Part shown: positions 2,315 to 29,839 of the stretch, piece by piece | Numbering within the stretch: position 1 is the stretch's first letter | Layout of the letters: each line of letters opens with the position of its first letter | Origin: an uncultured Massilia sp. | GTDB taxonomy: Bacteria > Pseudomonadota > Gammaproteobacteria > Burkholderiales > Burkholderiaceae_D | Assembly (NCBI GenBank): GCA_963529995.1 | Contig: CAUSCY010000008.1 | Coordinates: 26,933-90,932 of the forward strand | Length of the DNA stretch: 64,000 nucleotides | Reading direction: 5' to 3' | Translations under genes and position numbers: made by a program | Notes under the pieces: generated by a model | Databases searched by the model: none | The model's input: only the letters and a program-made list of their open reading frames with translations | What the model was told of the DNA's origin: nothing

Positions 2315-3364
2315 CTACCGGGGACTCTCGACCGTATAGCCCTTCGCCGCCAGGTCCGCCAGATAGCCGCGCTCGCCGAGGATGTCCTTCATCTGCAGGA
2401 TGGCGAAGGTCGAGGTATTGCCGGCCAGGGATTTCTCCGCGCTCTGCAGCCAGGCAGCGCGCAGGCGCCCCGGCATGTCCTGGAATTGCGTGTTGTTGCG
2501 GGCGACGGAGCTGTTCAGGATGGCGCTGTTGCAGGCGTCTTCCCGCTCGGTGAAGTTGACGCTGCGGATCTCGGCGATATTGCCGTTGGCCCAGGCATTG
2601 GCACGCGCACGCATGGCGTCGAGGTCGCCATCGATGCTGTCGATGGTCTTCGTGAAGCAGGCGACGTCGTCCATCTGCTGCTTCTTGAATTCCTGGATCA
2701 TCTTGCGCGGCTCTTCCACGTCGAACTCGAAGCCCGTCTTGCTGACCTTGACCTTGTTCTTCCTGGCGATGTCCTCGACGGCCTTGACCACTTGCACGCT
2801 CGTGGCCAGGCCGTTCTTCTTCATGCCGGCCTGGCGCAGTTCCTGGCCGGCGAAGATCGGGCGGTAGCGCTCGACGCCGTCGTCCTCGCCAAGATATTTT
2901 TCCTTGAGGCCCGTCCAGCGCGCATACACGTCGGCCGGCACCACGTCGCGCAACTGGGCGCCGTCCGGGTTCTTCTTCAGGCCGACCAGGCTGGGCAGCA
3001 GAGTAATGCTGCGGAAGAAGCCGACGTGGCCGTTGGCGTTTGGCGGCATCAGCACTTCCTGGGAACTGGCGACGAGGCGTTCGACGCGCGATGCATCCCA
3101 CTCCAGCTTCGCCGGCAGCGGCGAATAGGTACCGAACACCCACATCACGTGCTCGCCCTTGGACACCTTCCACACGCCGGGGCCGGGACGGCGGCCCGAG
3201 ACGACGATCTGCGTCGGCGCTTCGCTCAGTTCGGATGTGGGTTCGGCGGCTGCCTGGTGCGCCTCCTGGCCAGGCTCGGCGGAGGACGCGGGTGCGCCCG
3301 TCTGCGCCAGCGCCGGCAGGGCAAGGACAGCGAAGTACAGCGCGCATGCGGTTCGTTTGCTCAT
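2315..3364 (-). CDS. TraB/GumN family protein, secreted (paralogue)
   Basis: Start taken at ATG 3364 (MSKRTACALYFAVLALPALAQT signal peptide); the track ORF begins at TTG 3406. Collinear similarity to 1259..2293 throughout. Confidence 0.7.
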   Translation of the reverse strand: MSKRTACALYFAVLALPALAQTGAPASSAEPGQEAHQAAAEPTSELSEAPTQIVVSGRRPGPGVWKVSKGEHVMWVFGTYSPLPAKLEWDASRVERLVASSQEVLMPPNANGHVGFFRSITLLPSLVGLKKNPDGAQLRDVVPADVYARWTGLKEKYLGEDDGVERYRPIFAGQELRQAGMKKNGLATSVQVVKAVEDIARKNKVKVSKTGFEFDVEEPRKMIQEFKKQQMDDVACFTKTIDSIDGDLDAMRARANAWANGNIAEIRSVNFTEREDACNSAILNSSVARNNTQFQDMPGRLRAAWLQSAEKSLAGNTSTFAILQMKDILGERGYLADLAAKGYTVESPR

Positions 3365-3460
3365 CGTGCATCCCTTTGTTGTTGTGTCGCGAAAGATTAG
3401 CGACAAGGACGAGCTTAGCCCATCTCAACAACAAAGTGTTACGATTTTGACATGCATATA

Positions 3461-4183
3461 TCAGAGGCCGAGGTCGCCCTGCTCGCCTTCCTCGGGCGGC
3501 CGCTCCAGGAGTTCGTGCGCCAGTTTCAGGCTGTCCACCATGACCTTGAACGCTTCGCGCTTGGCCTCCTCGCTCGGCACGCGCAGCACGTACGAGGGGT
3601 GGTAGGTGGTGACGACCCAGCGGCCTTCGTGCAGCATGGGCTTGCCGAGGGAATTCTTCAGCGTGACGTTGGCGGTGCGCAGCACGGACTTCAATGCCGT
3701 GGCGCCCAGGGCCACGATGACGGTCGGCTGGACGCTGGCGAGTTCCTTGTCGAGCCAGTAGTGGCAGGCCTCGATCTCGCGCTGCACGGGCGTCTTGTGC
3801 AGGCGGCGCTTGCCGCGCGGCTCCCACTTGAAATGCTTGACGGCGTTGGTGACGTAGATCGTGTCGCGGTCCACGCCGGCCTTCTCGCACACGCTGTCGA
3901 GCAACTTGCCGGCCGGGCCGACGAAGGGCTGGCCGGCCAGGTCTTCCTGGTCGCCCGGCTGCTCGCCGACGAACATGATCCGCGCCTTCTTGGGCCCCTC
4001 TCCCGGCACGGCCTGGGTGGCGAATTCCCACAGCTCGCAGCGGCGGCACTCGTCCAGCCTGGACGGCTGCTGGCGTTCGGGCTGGGCATCGGCGGGGGCG
4101 ATGGGAATCGTCGTGCCCTTGCGCTGGCCGACGGCTTCGTACTGACCGACCTTGCGCGCGCCGCGCGCTGCGTCGCCGATCAT
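3461..4183 (-). CDS. UdgX-like family-4 uracil-DNA glycosylase domain protein
   Basis: CRRCELW cysteine pair, motif A GEQPG, motif B HPSYVLR and a KRRLH loop (compare UdgX KRRIH). Same reading frame as the upstream DUF4130 ORF. Confidence 0.85.
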   Translation of the reverse strand: MIGDAARGARKVGQYEAVGQRKGTTIPIAPADAQPERQQPSRLDECRRCELWEFATQAVPGEGPKKARIMFVGEQPGDQEDLAGQPFVGPAGKLLDSVCEKAGVDRDTIYVTNAVKHFKWEPRGKRRLHKTPVQREIEACHYWLDKELASVQPTVIVALGATALKSVLRTANVTLKNSLGKPMLHEGRWVVTTYHPSYVLRVPSEEAKREAFKVMVDSLKLAHELLERPPEEGEQGDLGL

Positions 4184-4216
4184 CTGGGGGACGATCTTCG
4201 CTTCCGGCAGGTTCTT

Positions 4217-4219
4217 TCA
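4217..4219 (-). other. in-frame TGA separating the DUF4130 and UdgX ORFs
   Basis: ...HIASDR-TGA-KNLPEAKIVPQ-M(4183)... The stop codon begins at 4219 and the ATG at 4183, 36 nt (12 codons) apart, so there is no frame change. Confidence 0.9.
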
Positions 4220-4990
4220 GCGGTCCGAGGCGATGTGCTGGTGCATGATGTCCGCGTTCAGGCGCGCCGGGTTGAACACGCTGCGGTAATAGGTCAGCCA
4301 CAGCGCCTCGCCGCTGTCGTCGAGCTCTTCCGGCCCTTTGACGATCGGGCCGGCGTCGTGCAGCGTCTGGCCGTCCCACAGCACGCTCGCCTCGGGCGTG
4401 GCGATCATCCAGCTGACCTTGCCCATGCGCGCGACGAAGTGCCGGGCCACCTGGGGCAGCACGTCGTGGCGCGGCTCGTACCAGGCGACGAAGCGCGGCG
4501 GGCCCGCCTGTTCGGGACGTTCGCGGAATCGGATATAGGCATGCATGTCGTGCTCCTCGCGTCGCACCGCCTTGACCATCGCATTCAGGCGCGCGCCGTC
4601 TTCGTCGGCCGGCGACTGCACGTCGTGCTCGCCCTGCTGCCAGCGCCAGATGACGCGGTACAGGAAGGCCCAGCGGTCCGGCACGCGGCAGCAGGCGGCG
4701 CTCTGCAGCATCTCCATCAACGAACGGGGGATGTGCGGGGCCGGACGGAGCGGCGACTGCGACCGCTCCTGCGCGGACGGCGGTGTGCCTGCATTATCCC
4801 CAGCCGCGTCCGGCGGCGGCGCACTCGTGAGCAGGTCGCCGCCCGTCAGCGGCGAACCCCAGGTGACGTCCTGCGGCGCCACGTCGTGGGCCAGCAGTTC
4901 GCGGGCGGCGTCGCGCCACGCGGCGAAGCCGTCGACCAGCAGCGGCCGGCCGGCGCGCACCTGGTCGATGGCGCCCAGGCCCGTGCTCAT
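4217..4990 (-). CDS. TIGR03915/DUF4130-family putative DNA metabolism protein
   Basis: ATG 4990 overlaps the radical SAM stop as ATGA. Motifs AYIRFRE..., WLTYYRSVFNPARLN are recalled from this family. Confidence 0.75.
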   Translation of the reverse strand: MSTGLGAIDQVRAGRPLLVDGFAAWRDAARELLAHDVAPQDVTWGSPLTGGDLLTSAPPPDAAGDNAGTPPSAQERSQSPLRPAPHIPRSLMEMLQSAACCRVPDRWAFLYRVIWRWQQGEHDVQSPADEDGARLNAMVKAVRREEHDMHAYIRFRERPEQAGPPRFVAWYEPRHDVLPQVARHFVARMGKVSWMIATPEASVLWDGQTLHDAGPIVKGPEELDDSGEALWLTYYRSVFNPARLNADIMHQHIASDR

Positions 4991-6216
4991 GCGGCCTGCA
5001 GTTCCGGCCATAGGTTCATCTGCTCGGGAGCATCGGCCATGCTGCGCCGGAGCAGTTCGGACGAGGCGGCGCCCTGCACCGGCTTGTAGTCCGCGGTGAC
5101 GACGAAGGGCGCCAGCTTCTTCATGCTGCAGCGCAGGCGCGACAGGTCTTCCCAGCGGATGCGGCGCAAGCGGCGCAGGTCGATCAGGCGCTTGGCCGAG
5201 CGCAAGCCGATGCCCGGCACGCGCGCGATCATCATCTCGTCGGCGCGGTTCAAATCGAGCGGAAAGTGTTCGCGGTTGGTCAGCGCCCAGGCCAGCTTGG
5301 GGTCGATGTCGAGCGGCAGGTTGCCCGCCTGCGGGATCAGTTCTCCCGCCGTGAAGCCGTAGCCGCGCAGCAGGAAGTCGGCCTGGTACAGGCGGTGTTC
5401 GCGCAGCAGCGGCGGCGGTGCCGAGGGCACGCTGGACGGGCTCTGCGGGATCGGGCTGAAGGCCGAGTAGTACACGCGCTTGAGCTTGTAGCTACCATAC
5501 AGCGTCTGCGCCGTATTCAGGATGGTGCGGTCGTCGCTGGCGTCGGCGCCGACGATCATCTGCGTGCTCTGCCCCGCCGGCGCAAAGGCCGGCGCCTTCG
5601 GGTGGTCGTCCTTCTCGTCGAGCCTGGTGCGGATGGAACCCATCGCCAGCTTGATCGTGTGGACGTTCTTTTCCGGCGCCAGGCGCGTCACGCTGTCCTG
5701 GGTCGGCAGTTCGATGTTGACGGACAGGCGGTCCGCGTACTTGCCGGCCAGCTCGATCAGGCGCGGGTCGGCATCGGGAATCGTCTTGAGGTGGATGTAG
5801 CCGCGGAACTTGTGCACTTCGCGCAGCCGGCGTGCTACCTCGACCAGCTGCTCCATCGTGTAGTCGCTGGACTGGATGATGCCGGAACTCAGGAACAGCC
5901 CGTCGATGTAGTTGCGCAGGTAGAAGTCCTGCGTCAGCTTGACGACTTCGTCGACCGAGAAACGGGCGCGCGGCACGTTCGAGGTGCGCCGGTTCACGCA
6001 GTACTGGCAATCGTAGATGCAGAAGTTGGTCAGCAGGATCTTCAGCAGCGAGACGCATCTTCCGTCCGGCGTATAGCTGTGGCAGATGCCCATGCCCGTG
6101 GACGCACCCAGGCCGTCCTTGTCCAGCGAGTCGCGCTTGGGCGCGCCGCTGCTGGCACAGGAGGCGTCGTATTTGGCGGCGTCGGCCAGGATCTCCAGCT
6201 TGTCCTTGAGTTCCAT
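4987..6216 (-). CDS. putative DNA modification/repair radical SAM protein (TIGR03916-like)
   Basis: CIYDCQYC (CxxxCxxC) cluster motif. C-terminal HhH-like ARVPGIGLRSAKRLIDLR. ATG 6216 (MELKDKLEIL) has AGGAG 7 nt upstream. Confidence 0.85.
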   Translation of the reverse strand: MELKDKLEILADAAKYDASCASSGAPKRDSLDKDGLGASTGMGICHSYTPDGRCVSLLKILLTNFCIYDCQYCVNRRTSNVPRARFSVDEVVKLTQDFYLRNYIDGLFLSSGIIQSSDYTMEQLVEVARRLREVHKFRGYIHLKTIPDADPRLIELAGKYADRLSVNIELPTQDSVTRLAPEKNVHTIKLAMGSIRTRLDEKDDHPKAPAFAPAGQSTQMIVGADASDDRTILNTAQTLYGSYKLKRVYYSAFSPIPQSPSSVPSAPPPLLREHRLYQADFLLRGYGFTAGELIPQAGNLPLDIDPKLAWALTNREHFPLDLNRADEMMIARVPGIGLRSAKRLIDLRRLRRIRWEDLSRLRCSMKKLAPFVVTADYKPVQGAASSELLRRSMADAPEQMNLWPELQAA

Positions 6217-6229
6217 CCACGGACTCCTG

Positions 6230-6249
6230 TACTGTATGGAAATACAGTA
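6230..6249. promoter_or_regulatory. LexA SOS box (CTGT-N8-ACAG class)
   Basis: TACTGTATGGAAATACAGTA has perfect 8-bp palindromic arms. It lies 14-33 nt upstream of the radical SAM start and abuts its Shine-Dalgarno. Confidence 0.75.
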
Positions 6250-6406
6250 TAACCCGGTGCCGTTGCGCCGACCGTACGCACGCGCACGTCGGCGGGTCAA
6301 ACCCTGGACAGTGTCGGAAAAATGCATATTTTCCGATGCACTGCGGGTCTAAGGAAAAGAGAATGCTACACTTCAAAAGTTGTCCTCAAGACACCTTTGA
6401 AATCCT

Positions 6407-7210
6407 ATGTCCGTACAGTATCGCAACAATGTGCACATCGCCGGAAACGGGCCGGTCACCATGGTGTTTGCCCATGGCTTCGGCTGCGACCAGAGCATGT
6501 GGCGCTTCCTCGCCCCGACCTACGAAGACCGCTTCCGCACCATCCTGTTCGACCTGGTCGGCAGCGGCCGGTCCGACCTGGCGGCCTACGACCGCAGGAA
6601 GTACGGCAGCCTGCACGGCTATGCCGACGACCTGCTGGAGATCATCGATGCCTGCGCATCCGGCCCCGTGGTCTTCGTCGGGCACTCGGTCAGCGCGATG
6701 ATCGGCCTGCTGGCGTCGATCAAGGCGCCCGAGCGCTTCGCGGCCCAGGTCATGGTCGGCCCGTCGCCCAGCTTCATCAACGACGGCGACTACGTCGGCG
6801 GCTTCAACCGCGAGGACATCGGCATCCTGCTCGAGACCATGGAAGACAACTTCGCGGCCTGGTCGGAAAAAGTGGCGCCGATGATCATGGGCGCGCCCAA
6901 CCAGCCGGAGCTGGGCACGGAACTGATCGAAAGCTTCTGTCGCAACGATCCATCGATCGCCAAGCATTTCGCGCGCGTGACCTTTCTCGCCGACCACCGG
7001 GCCGACCTGCCCAAATCGACCGTGCCGGCCCTGATCCTGGAATGCAGCGACGACCTGATCGTGCCGCGCGAAGTGGGCGCCTACATGCAGCGCCATCTGC
7101 CGAACAGCACGCTGGCCGTGATCGACAACGTCGGCCACTGCCCGCACCTGAGCGCGCCGACGGCGAGCTCGCGCGTGATCGACGCATTCCTGGCGCAGAC
7201 GCTGGGCTGA
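6407..7210 (+). CDS. RsbQ/KAI2/D14-type alpha/beta hydrolase
   Basis: VFAHGFGCDQSMWRF, nucleophile elbow GHSVSA, acid residue in ECSDDLIVP, histidine in VGHCPHLSAP. Collinear with B. subtilis RsbQ as I recall it. Confidence 0.85.
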   Translation: MSVQYRNNVHIAGNGPVTMVFAHGFGCDQSMWRFLAPTYEDRFRTILFDLVGSGRSDLAAYDRRKYGSLHGYADDLLEIIDACASGPVVFVGHSVSAMIGLLASIKAPERFAAQVMVGPSPSFINDGDYVGGFNREDIGILLETMEDNFAAWSEKVAPMIMGAPNQPELGTELIESFCRNDPSIAKHFARVTFLADHRADLPKSTVPALILECSDDLIVPREVGAYMQRHLPNSTLAVIDNVGHCPHLSAPTASSRVIDAFLAQTLG

Positions 7211-25448: not shown

Positions 25449-25652
25449 AGACTGACCTTAAAATCGATGGAGAACCGCGTAATGCTTGCTGCACGCCGCC
25501 CGGCTGGGAGAAAATACGCGCTGTACATCCGTACAGTCGAATTTGTTGTAAAAACGACCAGCGGTCACGACGTTTTTCGCAGCCTCCGTATGAGCGGGAG
25601 CTCCGAAAACGCTATATCATAAAGCACTCCGCCCATATACGAGTAACAAAAC

Positions 25653-29685: not shown

Positions 29686-29812
29686 GTGATCGGGCGAGGA
29701 GACATACAGGAAACGCATATCATGTATTCCAAACAAAAATTGGACTGATATGTTGTGGTGCACCATAATTGCACCTGTCTCCTCCAACTCTCCTCAAAAA
29801 GAATTGGATTTA

Positions 29813-29839
29813 AGCCCGCCTCACCGCGGGCTTTTTTTT
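29813..29839 (+). terminator. rho-independent terminator
   Basis: GCCCGC-CTCACC-GCGGGC followed by T8. Confidence 0.8.

Follow-up and report, generated by a model that had tools for sequence, protein, structure and literature searches.

On the minus strand of the window (the whole 64,000-nt stretch of DNA that was analysed) lie a radical SAM gene, a DUF4130 frame and a UdgX-family domain, preceded by a palindrome of the LexA-box type (Table 1). The radical SAM protein scored 536 bits against the NCBIfam model TIGR03916 (cut-off 343.5). Its CxxxCxxC motif (C66/C70/C73) is nearly invariant in one alignment and invariant in another, and its C-terminal helix-hairpin-helix (HhH) contains PGIG at residues 334–337, of which P334-G335-x-G337 is invariant in both; relatives carry PF14520. 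All homologues are 409 aa long and begin with MELKDK, which places the true start at 6216 and not at the ATG 6327 given in the list of open reading frames. The start of the DUF4130 frame overlaps the radical SAM stop in the sequence ATGA (4990–4987), and the frame matches TIGR03915 with 172 bits (cut-off 112) up to model position 232 of 243. The UdgX frame scored 263.8 bits against TIGR03914 (NCBIfam cut-off 189.95), and H398 is invariant in protein alignment A1.

Table 1. Features of the locus, with coordinates in the window.
Feature	Coordinates	Strand	Basis
Radical SAM protein, TIGR03916 / COG4277, 409 aa	4987..6216	-	NCBIfam, Pfam Radical_SAM
DUF4130 / TIGR03915 frame, 257 codons	4217..4990	-	Starts at ATG 4990, ends at premature TGA; profile match
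UdgX-family uracil-DNA-binding domain (TIGR03914), 251 in-frame codons after the TGA	3461..4216	-	Profile, PDB match
In-frame TGA in place of a conserved Trp codon (..SDRWKNLPE..)	4217..4219	-	Protein alignment A1, DNA alignment A2
Shine-Dalgarno sequence AGGAG	6224..6228	-	7 nt 5′ of the ATG; read from sequence
Putative LexA (SOS) box TACTGTATGGAAATACAGTA	6230..6249	.	Palindromic 8-bp arms; PWM score, orthologue conservation
Candidate -10 hexamer TATACT	6246..6251	-	Overlaps left arm of the box; inferred from sequence
Alpha/beta-hydrolase gene, divergent neighbour	6407-7210	+	

An AF2 model of the radical SAM protein reached a pLDDT of 87.9. The best 50 Foldseek matches to this model were HydE, PFL-AE, BioB, LipA, viperin and similar proteins, and the likeness to HydE, PFL-AE and BioB was confined to the common core (TMq ~0.4). 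Searching PDB sequences with the protein gave no match at E <= 0.01; this result, together with the absence of SPL from the best 50 Foldseek matches, led us to reject an SPL-like identity. A role in anti-phage defence was likewise rejected, as none of the three products matched a family among the PADLOC anti-phage models at E <= 0.001.

A LexA-type palindrome immediately upstream of the operon

The 20-mer at 6230–6249 is built from two perfect 8-bp arms (TACTGTAT and ATACAGTA) around a 4-nt centre and matches CTGT-N8-ACAG exactly, as the original prediction had stated. It agrees with the E. coli-type consensus TACTGTATATATATACAGTA at 17 of 20 positions, which was equalled in 0/100 shuffles. 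Scored with a position weight matrix (PWM) derived from 23 orthologous beta/gamma sites, whose own scores span 19.5–37.0 bits, the palindrome reached 32.6 bits, compared with 16.3 bits for the top of 20 shuffles. It is separated by 13 nt (CAGGAGTCCGTGG) from the radical SAM ATG (6216–6214, minus strand).

The candidate -10 hexamer recurs as nATACT at the matching position in Oxalobacteraceae loci. No convincing -35 element is present for the operon, and a sigma-70 and terminator consensus scan of 3300–6500 detected neither a promoter on the minus strand nor a terminator, such that we infer the position of the promoter.

The window contains a second intergenic CTGT-N8-ACAG match, CTGTACATCCGTACAG at 25521–25536, which the original prediction had overlooked in asserting that there was no other. 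It is located in the 204-nt spacer that separates the minus-strand bamE (start 25448) from the plus-strand fur (start 25653) and is weaker, scoring 18.3 bits against a maximum of 16.3 bits for 20 shuffles and 19.5 bits for the lowest training site. Six relatives recovered via an identical Fur protein are 95% identical over the whole bamE-fur spacer and are therefore uninformative on the conservation of this site. A search of the open reading frames across the window for lexA, recA and other SOS genes found none; the identifiable genes have housekeeping or signalling functions, and several frames have no family match. Because the lexA gene lies outside the window, the DNA-binding specificity of the host LexA is taken from class-level knowledge.

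Taxon-matched LexA motifs precede orthologous radical SAM genes

Eighty genomes were surveyed for the LexA motif of their own taxon within 100 nt upstream of the orthologous radical SAM gene. In Betaproteobacteria a CTGT-N8-ACAG-type box was detected at 19/20 loci, and at the twentieth, from a betaproteobacterial MAG without a proximal box, the gene directly follows lexA, which has a box of its own. Non-xanthomonad Gammaproteobacteria carry a LexA-type box at 6/7 loci, while in Alphaproteobacteria GAAC-N7-GAAC was observed at 40/43, mostly at -26. Taken together, 65 of the 70 alpha, beta and gamma loci have the taxon-matched motif, usually 10–15 nt from the start codon, and cross-controls using the wrong-taxon motif produced 0 matches in either group (background at most 0.006 per 110 bp). 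Although their flanks are unrelated, 13 Oxalobacteraceae and other beta loci keep the box at a distance of 7–23 nt from the start codon, and it is conserved amid unrelated flanks at L001, L002 and L004–L013.

These data bear on whether the palindrome could be a functionless chance occurrence. A shuffled window should contain the bare CTGT-N8-ACAG pattern 0.42 times on average, and 8/100 shuffles contained at least two matches; however, the full 20-mer was absent from all shuffles, its PWM score is far above the shuffle maximum (see above), its place is conserved in divergent genomes and the motifs are taxon-matched with no cross-matches, so that this reading is effectively refuted. It is also very improbable that the palindrome is the operator of a regulator other than LexA, such as a dedicated operon repressor, and merely resembles an SOS box. 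The operon can indeed be wired to other regulators, since Xanthomonadales loci have another conserved palindrome, (G/T)TCTC-N7-GAGAC at -38, and in Acinetobacter the operon answers to the WYL activator DdaA, not to LexA; LexA control of the radical SAM/UdgX operon is thus not universal. Against a different regulator at this locus, the motif shifts between taxa in exactly the way that the LexA motif does (from CTGT-N8-ACAG in beta/gamma to GAAC-N7-GAAC in alpha), the palindrome closely fits the E. coli-type consensus and lexA itself is immediately upstream at one beta locus.

Alternatively, a LexA site at this position might serve the divergent alpha/beta-hydrolase gene instead of, or besides, the radical SAM operon. 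The hydrolase gene and the operon diverge from an intergenic region of 190 nt, within which the box is 157 nt away from the hydrolase ATG, and the consensus scan returned a promoter-like match on the plus strand at 6305–6332. Control of the hydrolase is nonetheless highly unlikely, because at L002 the divergent neighbour is a different gene and yet the distance from the box to the radical SAM start is kept, and because at ~65 loci the motif stays at a near-constant distance from the radical SAM start codon. The strong phylogenetic footprint, with which the literature agrees (see below), supports the original proposal that the palindrome is a LexA operator and, by extension, that the operon is damage-induced.

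A nonsense codon splits the DUF4130-UdgX gene

The DUF4130 and UDG open reading frames share one frame and are divided by a single TGA (4219–4217). This codon costs the TIGR03915 domain its last 7 residues and detaches the UdgX domain; when it is read through as Trp, the TIGR03915 match lengthens from 232/243 to 243/243. DUF4130 and UdgX form one fused protein in 66/67 loci (19/19 in beta), and the close relative L002 encodes a fusion of 506 aa, the start of its gene sharing 4 nt with the radical SAM stop. The Trp codon is TGG in all seven close relatives, which comprise two loci and the contigs of five sequencing runs that are 95–99% alike: L001 (radical SAM protein 98% identical) and L002 (95%) in DNA alignment A2, and contigs from runs X1–X4 and X6, which have C at plus-strand 4217. 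Judged from these alignments, the TGG-to-TGA change is private to this genome. The only ATG from which the UdgX frame could restart is at 4183 (240 aa) and lacks a clear Shine-Dalgarno sequence.

The locus had been described as a trio of translationally coupled or co-framed genes. The ATGA overlap and the shared frame bear out the coupling, but the second and third open reading frames are one nonsense-split gene, and the fusion in 66/67 loci together with TGG in seven relatives indicates a two-gene operon.

Among the indexed sequencing runs searched, none matches this strain (best word share 0.39). Run X6, labelled 'RNA?', behaves like a genome assembly and so carries no expression information.

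It is a serious possibility, if one that we place short of even, that the TGA is a sequencing or assembly error and that the genome really encodes the usual 509-aa fusion. All relatives examined have TGG at this codon, from which the genome differs by one base, and GC3 downstream of the stop is still 0.92, giving no sign of decay. However, a very recent real mutation would look identical, and operons lacking UdgX occur naturally in Pseudomonas, Spongiibacter and Verrucomicrobia, indicating that loss of UdgX can be tolerated.

A model for the regulation and function of the operon

We consider it about 85% probable that a Massilia-like betaproteobacterium here carries, on its chromosome, an SOS operon that is repressed by LexA and induced by DNA damage and whose second gene is nonsense-split. 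According to this model, a LexA dimer would occupy the 20-bp operator at 6230–6249, overlapping the -10-like TATACT and positioned just before the start codon, and would thereby block transcription of the translationally coupled operon. Because the palindrome appears to be a LexA operator, the operon should be damage-induced: DNA damage would promote RecA-stimulated self-cleavage of LexA and free the promoter.

In this model the operon usually has two products: a TIGR03916-family radical SAM enzyme that binds DNA (HhH), and a DUF4130-UdgX fusion. Docking on the radical SAM enzyme is predicted for the DUF4130 part of the fusion, and covalent binding to uracil or abasic sites in DNA for its UdgX part. 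Here, at the end of the DUF4130 domain, a single G-to-A change converts the conserved Trp codon to TGA. Translation of the fusion would therefore stop at a truncated DUF4130 protein, and UdgX would be produced only through rare read-through, restoring Trp, or through reinitiation at ATG 4183. Our best guess for the enzymatic role, which is conjecture, is that a radical-based reaction processes a damaged pyrimidine in DNA while UdgX acts on uracil or abasic sites at the same lesions.

More tentatively, the radical SAM/DUF4130 pair could be a widespread SOS-wired repair enzyme of undescribed chemistry to which UdgX is an optional addition, the genomes that lack UdgX showing that the core is self-sufficient; we regard this as doubtful. 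The reaction might then start from a radical, need no light and process a damaged pyrimidine in single-stranded or gapped DNA, while the optional UdgX might covalently cap the abasic site derived from uracil at this lesion, in a manner akin to SRAP/HMCES shielding. If so, the UdgX-less state here, in Pseudomonas and in Acinetobacter would mean that the radical SAM/DUF4130 core works alone. The nonsense-split allele and close Massilia with an intact fusion provide a natural comparison for the contribution of UdgX after DNA damage.

Comparison with known systems

The regulatory link had already been published for other phyla, which the original prediction missed. As cited in PMC8565304, COG1573-COG4277 is reported to be under SOS regulation in Verrucomicrobia and in Caulobacter/Alphaproteobacteria and is predicted to be so in Bacteroidetes. 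The operons cited there share with the present one two gene families in a single operon and a LexA operator immediately upstream, and differ in that the motif here is the beta/gamma CTGT-N8-ACAG and the second gene is nonsense-split. Since the link is published elsewhere, the main contribution of this instance is to widen it to Oxalobacteraceae and, beyond them, to Beta- and Gammaproteobacteria that have the CTGT-N8-ACAG motif. More broadly, the conservation is both wide and precise (65/70 loci), which ranks the operon among the more consistently LexA-linked SOS genes of Proteobacteria.

CTGT-N8-ACAG is the betaproteobacterial SOS box, and such boxes have been noted 5′ of radical SAM genes in Acidovorax citrulli (PMC6595937). 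This passing mention, given as 'not shown', is the only prior betaproteobacterial report that we found. In Acinetobacter, which has no LexA, radical SAM and TIGR03915 genes are among the DNA-damage-response genes that depend on DdaA (PMC12392091). They share with the present operon the radical SAM/DUF4130 core module wired to the DNA damage response, but the regulator is an activator (DdaA, WYL) as opposed to the LexA repressor proposed here. That paper names only the TIGR03915-family partner, like the DUF4130-only operons of Pseudomonas and Spongiibacter. A complex of DUF4130 with the radical SAM protein has been predicted by AF3 (bioRxiv 10.64898/2026.08.19.745780).

The UdgX domain resembles M. 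smegmatis UdgX (PDB 6AJO, 6AIL), matching 6AJO with E 1.3e-51 over 183 residues. The loop of the crosslinking His is conserved (GKRRLHKTP here, GKRRIHKTP in 6AJO; KRRIH-type), as is the N-terminal CxxC, and crosslinking is accordingly a prediction for this domain. Unlike M. smegmatis UdgX, the domain is normally the C-terminal part of the DUF4130 fusion in a radical SAM operon, and here it is detached by the stop. In this genome the domain may go unexpressed owing to the upstream TGA.

Among radical SAM enzymes of DNA repair, only the spore photoproduct lyase SplB (COG1533) has, to our knowledge, a chemistry that is known. LexA regulation has also been predicted for SplB homologues of alpha- and Betaproteobacteria (PMC3323433), and the DUF4130-linked radical SAM enzyme was termed 'SplB-like' by Aravind's group (PMC3765255). 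SplB and the enzyme described here are alike in being radical SAM proteins with a link to the SOS response; however, the latter belongs to a different family, has an additional HhH domain at its C terminus and is paired obligatorily with DUF4130.

Results

In the window, a palindrome claimed by the original prediction, TACTGTATGGAAATACAGTA with perfect 8-bp arms, was confirmed at 6230–6249. The box is separated by a 13-nt spacer (CAGGAGTCCGTGG, with AGGAG at 6228–6224) from the radical SAM ATG at 6216, which was preferred to the upstream ATG of the ORF list (6327) because all homologues, each 409 aa long, begin at the same MELKDK. By itself CTGT-N8-ACAG is weak evidence against chance: the window holds two matches where 0.42 would be expected, and at least two turned up in 8 of 100 shuffles. 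Over its full length, the 20-mer shares 17 of 20 positions with the E. coli-type consensus, a match given by none of the shuffles. A position weight matrix was trained on 23 sites that precede the orthologous genes of other beta- and gammaproteobacteria, leaving out three near-identical relatives; here the site scored 32.6 bits (training range 19.5–37.0; top of 20 shuffled windows 16.3). A −10-like TATACT (6251–6246) overlaps the operator and is the putative promoter element; no good −35 accompanies it, and a promoter consensus scan found nothing on the minus strand.

The claim that no other intergenic CTGT-N8-ACAG occurs in the window is contradicted by a second palindrome in the spacer of two divergent genes, bamE (minus strand, start 25448) and fur (plus strand, start 25653). 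It scored 18.3 bits on the same matrix, slightly above the shuffle maximum and below all training sites, and its invariance in six close relatives is uninformative because the whole spacer is 95% identical there. It is possibly a weak LexA site.

Positions and properties of the sequence features
Feature	Position	Strand	Description
Radical SAM gene	4987–6216	minus	TIGR03916 / COG4277; 536 bits, cut-off 343.5
Second frame, 257 codons	4217–4990	minus	TIGR03915 / DUF4130; 172 bits, cut-off 112
Third frame, 251 codons	3461–4216	minus	TIGR03914, UdgX family; 264 bits, cut-off 190
LexA-type box TACTGTATGGAAATACAGTA	6230–6249		upstream of minus-strand operon; perfect 8-bp arms
CTGT-N8-ACAG palindrome CGCTGTACATCCGTACAGTC	25521–25536 (20-mer span 25519–25538)		intergenic, divergent spacer
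Low-complexity insert	4720–4860	minus	Pro/Ala-rich, variable; DUF4130 residues about 45–90
Branched hairpin	3364–3470	minus	MFE −33.5 kcal/mol, z −3.2
RF02278 match	29776–29839	plus	full length; 58.7 bits, gathering score 50
lexA-linked variant	L045, 2720–4697
DUF4130 without any UDG domain	L014, L016, L017, L024, L034, L038, L039, L046, L081

The 100 nt upstream of each start were scanned in 80 loci with orthologues from GTDB species genomes. The class's own LexA motif was found in 19 of 20 betaproteobacterial and 6 of 7 non-xanthomonad gammaproteobacterial loci (CTGT-N8-[A/C/T]CAG), and in 40/43 alphaproteobacterial loci (GAAC-N7-GAAC, mostly at −26). The beta/gamma motif occurred in none of the alpha loci and the alpha motif in none of the beta/gamma loci, and the background elsewhere in the same loci was at most 0.006 per 110 bp. 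This taxon-matched conservation supports the predicted LexA operator, and a regulator other than LexA is hard to reconcile with a motif that switches with class LexA specificity. The box goes with the radical SAM gene rather than with the divergent hydrolase gene, as the close relative L002 has another neighbour and yet retains the box. Among Oxalobacteraceae and other beta loci the box lies 7–23 nt from the start despite unrelated flanks, and in Comamonadaceae it adjoins the start codon.

At L061, L072, L076 and L018 (Variovorax, Pseudacidovorax and a Steroidobacteraceae MAG) the box touches the predicted start codon or overlaps it, by 0–3 nt. A Shine–Dalgarno sequence has no space there, which points to an mRNA with little or no leader, or to a wrongly placed start.

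Only one beta locus lacks a proximal box: L045, from a betaproteobacterial MAG. There lexA (56.9% identity to the E. coli protein by tblastn), itself preceded by a box, CACTGTATACATTGACAGTA, runs in the same direction as the radical SAM gene and lies directly before it at a distance of 97 nt, so that the locus is probably a lexA–radical SAM–DUF4130–UdgX operon. The CTGT box was also missing from 5/5 Xanthomonadales loci and one gammaproteobacterial MAG (L020, L024, L025, L031, L034, L035). These carry a palindrome, (G/T)TCTC-N7-GAGAC (e.g. GTCTCATAGGCTGAGAC), fixed at −38/−39 from the radical SAM start, which is not known as the Xanthomonas/Xylella LexA motif.

In the operon, which is read from the minus strand, the radical SAM stop (4989–4987) and the next ATG (4990–4988) overlap as ATGA; the second frame ends at TGA 4219–4217 and continues in frame to a stop at 3463–3461. 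The proposed gene trio holds as three reading frames, but not as three genes: there are two genes, the second of them interrupted by a nonsense codon. Nearly all relatives of the third ORF have both DUF4130 and UDG domains, and among 83 fetched loci (the 80 genomes plus three close relatives) a single ORF encodes them in 66 of the 67 having both, including 19/19 beta loci. In the protein alignment the stop coincides with an invariant Trp (..SDRWKNLPE..), encoded by TGG in the close relatives L001 (radical SAM 98% identical) and L002 (95%) versus TGA in the window; in L002, DUF4130 and UDG form one 506-aa protein, and its start overlaps the stop of the radical SAM gene. The TIGR03915 match ends at model position 232 in the window but reaches 243 of 243 once the stop is read as Trp; the TGA therefore cuts the last seven conserved domain residues and detaches UdgX.

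Plus-strand 4217 is C in contigs of all five public runs compared (95–99% alike), and none of the public runs searched for the window strain holds it (best share of words 0.39). A base-calling error is the less likely reading of the TGA, though a serious one, and a real private mutation somewhat the more probable. If the mutation is real, UdgX could be produced by UGA read-through or by reinitiation at the ATG at 4183, one without a clear Shine–Dalgarno sequence. Read-through by tRNA-Trp would bring back the ancestral Trp. DUF4130 operons naturally without a UDG domain occur in Pseudomonas, Spongiibacter, Verrucomicrobia, some Xanthomonadales (among them one Pseudoxanthomonas) and one gammaproteobacterial MAG; radical SAM/DUF4130 is thus the conserved core and UdgX an optional accessory.

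The low-complexity insert separates a conserved N-terminal segment from the DUF4130 core, and gene calls in some Massilia relatives begin past it, at the equivalent of M93 (e.g. Massilia sp. Se16.2.3, 417 aa). Past the UdgX stop and before the gene that follows (in L002 one of the TraB/GumN family) lies a branched hairpin, with an 11-bp outer stem (CUUUGUUGUUG/CAACAACAAAG) around two small hairpins, no T-tract and no Rfam match.

In the radical SAM protein, C66/C70/C73 form the CxxxCxxC motif, and an HhH motif (PGIG) is found in the C-terminal part. No PDB relatives were found by sequence; by fold, its AF2 model (pLDDT 87.9) resembles HydE, PFL-AE, BioB and LipA only in the core that radical SAM enzymes have in common (TMq about 0.4), and the 50 best structural matches do not include spore photoproduct lyase. 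The UdgX domain matches M. smegmatis UdgX structures (E 1.3e-51), with the KRRIH loop retained as GKRRLHKTP. PADLOC defence models did not match any of the three products.

Massilia species give the best named matches, with 94% identity of the radical SAM protein to those of Massilia sp. 2TAF26 and LXY-6; this marks the organism as Massilia-like and as belonging to the Oxalobacteraceae. Outside the operon, the window consists of ordinary chromosome (including leuS, holA, proA, dapB, bamE, fur, hrcA, rsmA, pdxA, surA, lptD, amgK, murU, xni, feoB and signalling proteins); several ORFs had no family match, and neither lexA nor recA was found among those identifiable. The RF02278 match belongs to the Rfam Betaproteobacteria toxic small RNA family.

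Discussion

We estimate a probability of about 0.85 that LexA regulates this operon through the operator at 6230–6249, with derepression upon damage. According to this model, LexA would occupy the operator overlapping TATACT, with transcription expected to start inside or right after the box; damage would then trigger RecA-stimulated LexA cleavage, thereby derepressing the coupled operon. A much more doubtful conjecture concerns the enzymology: DUF4130 might be the nucleotide- or ssDNA-holding partner of the HhH radical SAM enzyme, the two acting on a damaged pyrimidine in DNA, while UdgX would cut out uracil and then stay bound, covalently, to the abasic site so formed.

We found no literature mentioning UdgX together with radical SAM. 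Aravind and colleagues connected DUF4130, in SOS neighbourhoods, with UDGs and SplB-like radical SAM enzymes (PMC3765255), and a 2026 preprint describes a confident predicted DUF4130–radical SAM complex, concluding that modification and substrate cannot yet be named (bioRxiv 10.64898/2026.08.19.745780). SOS control of the COG1573–COG4277 operon (UDG and radical SAM) was reported earlier in Verrucomicrobia and Alphaproteobacteria and predicted in Bacteroidetes (Sanchez-Osuna et al, 2021; PMC8565304). CTGT-N8-ACAG boxes in front of "radical SAM proteins" are noted (data not shown) in a genome paper on Acidovorax citrulli, where this motif is cited as the consensus of most Betaproteobacteria (PMC6595937). 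In LexA-less Acinetobacter, radical SAM and TIGR03915 genes are among the DNA-damage-response genes, and loss of the WYL activator DdaA lowers the basal transcription of these two genes more than two-fold (PMC12392091). Thus, the regulatory link of this operon type was already known; the analysis adds a fusion gene split by a nonsense codon, a taxon-matched footprint that is quantified over 70 loci of Proteobacteria, a variant linked to lexA and the alternative Xanthomonadales palindrome.
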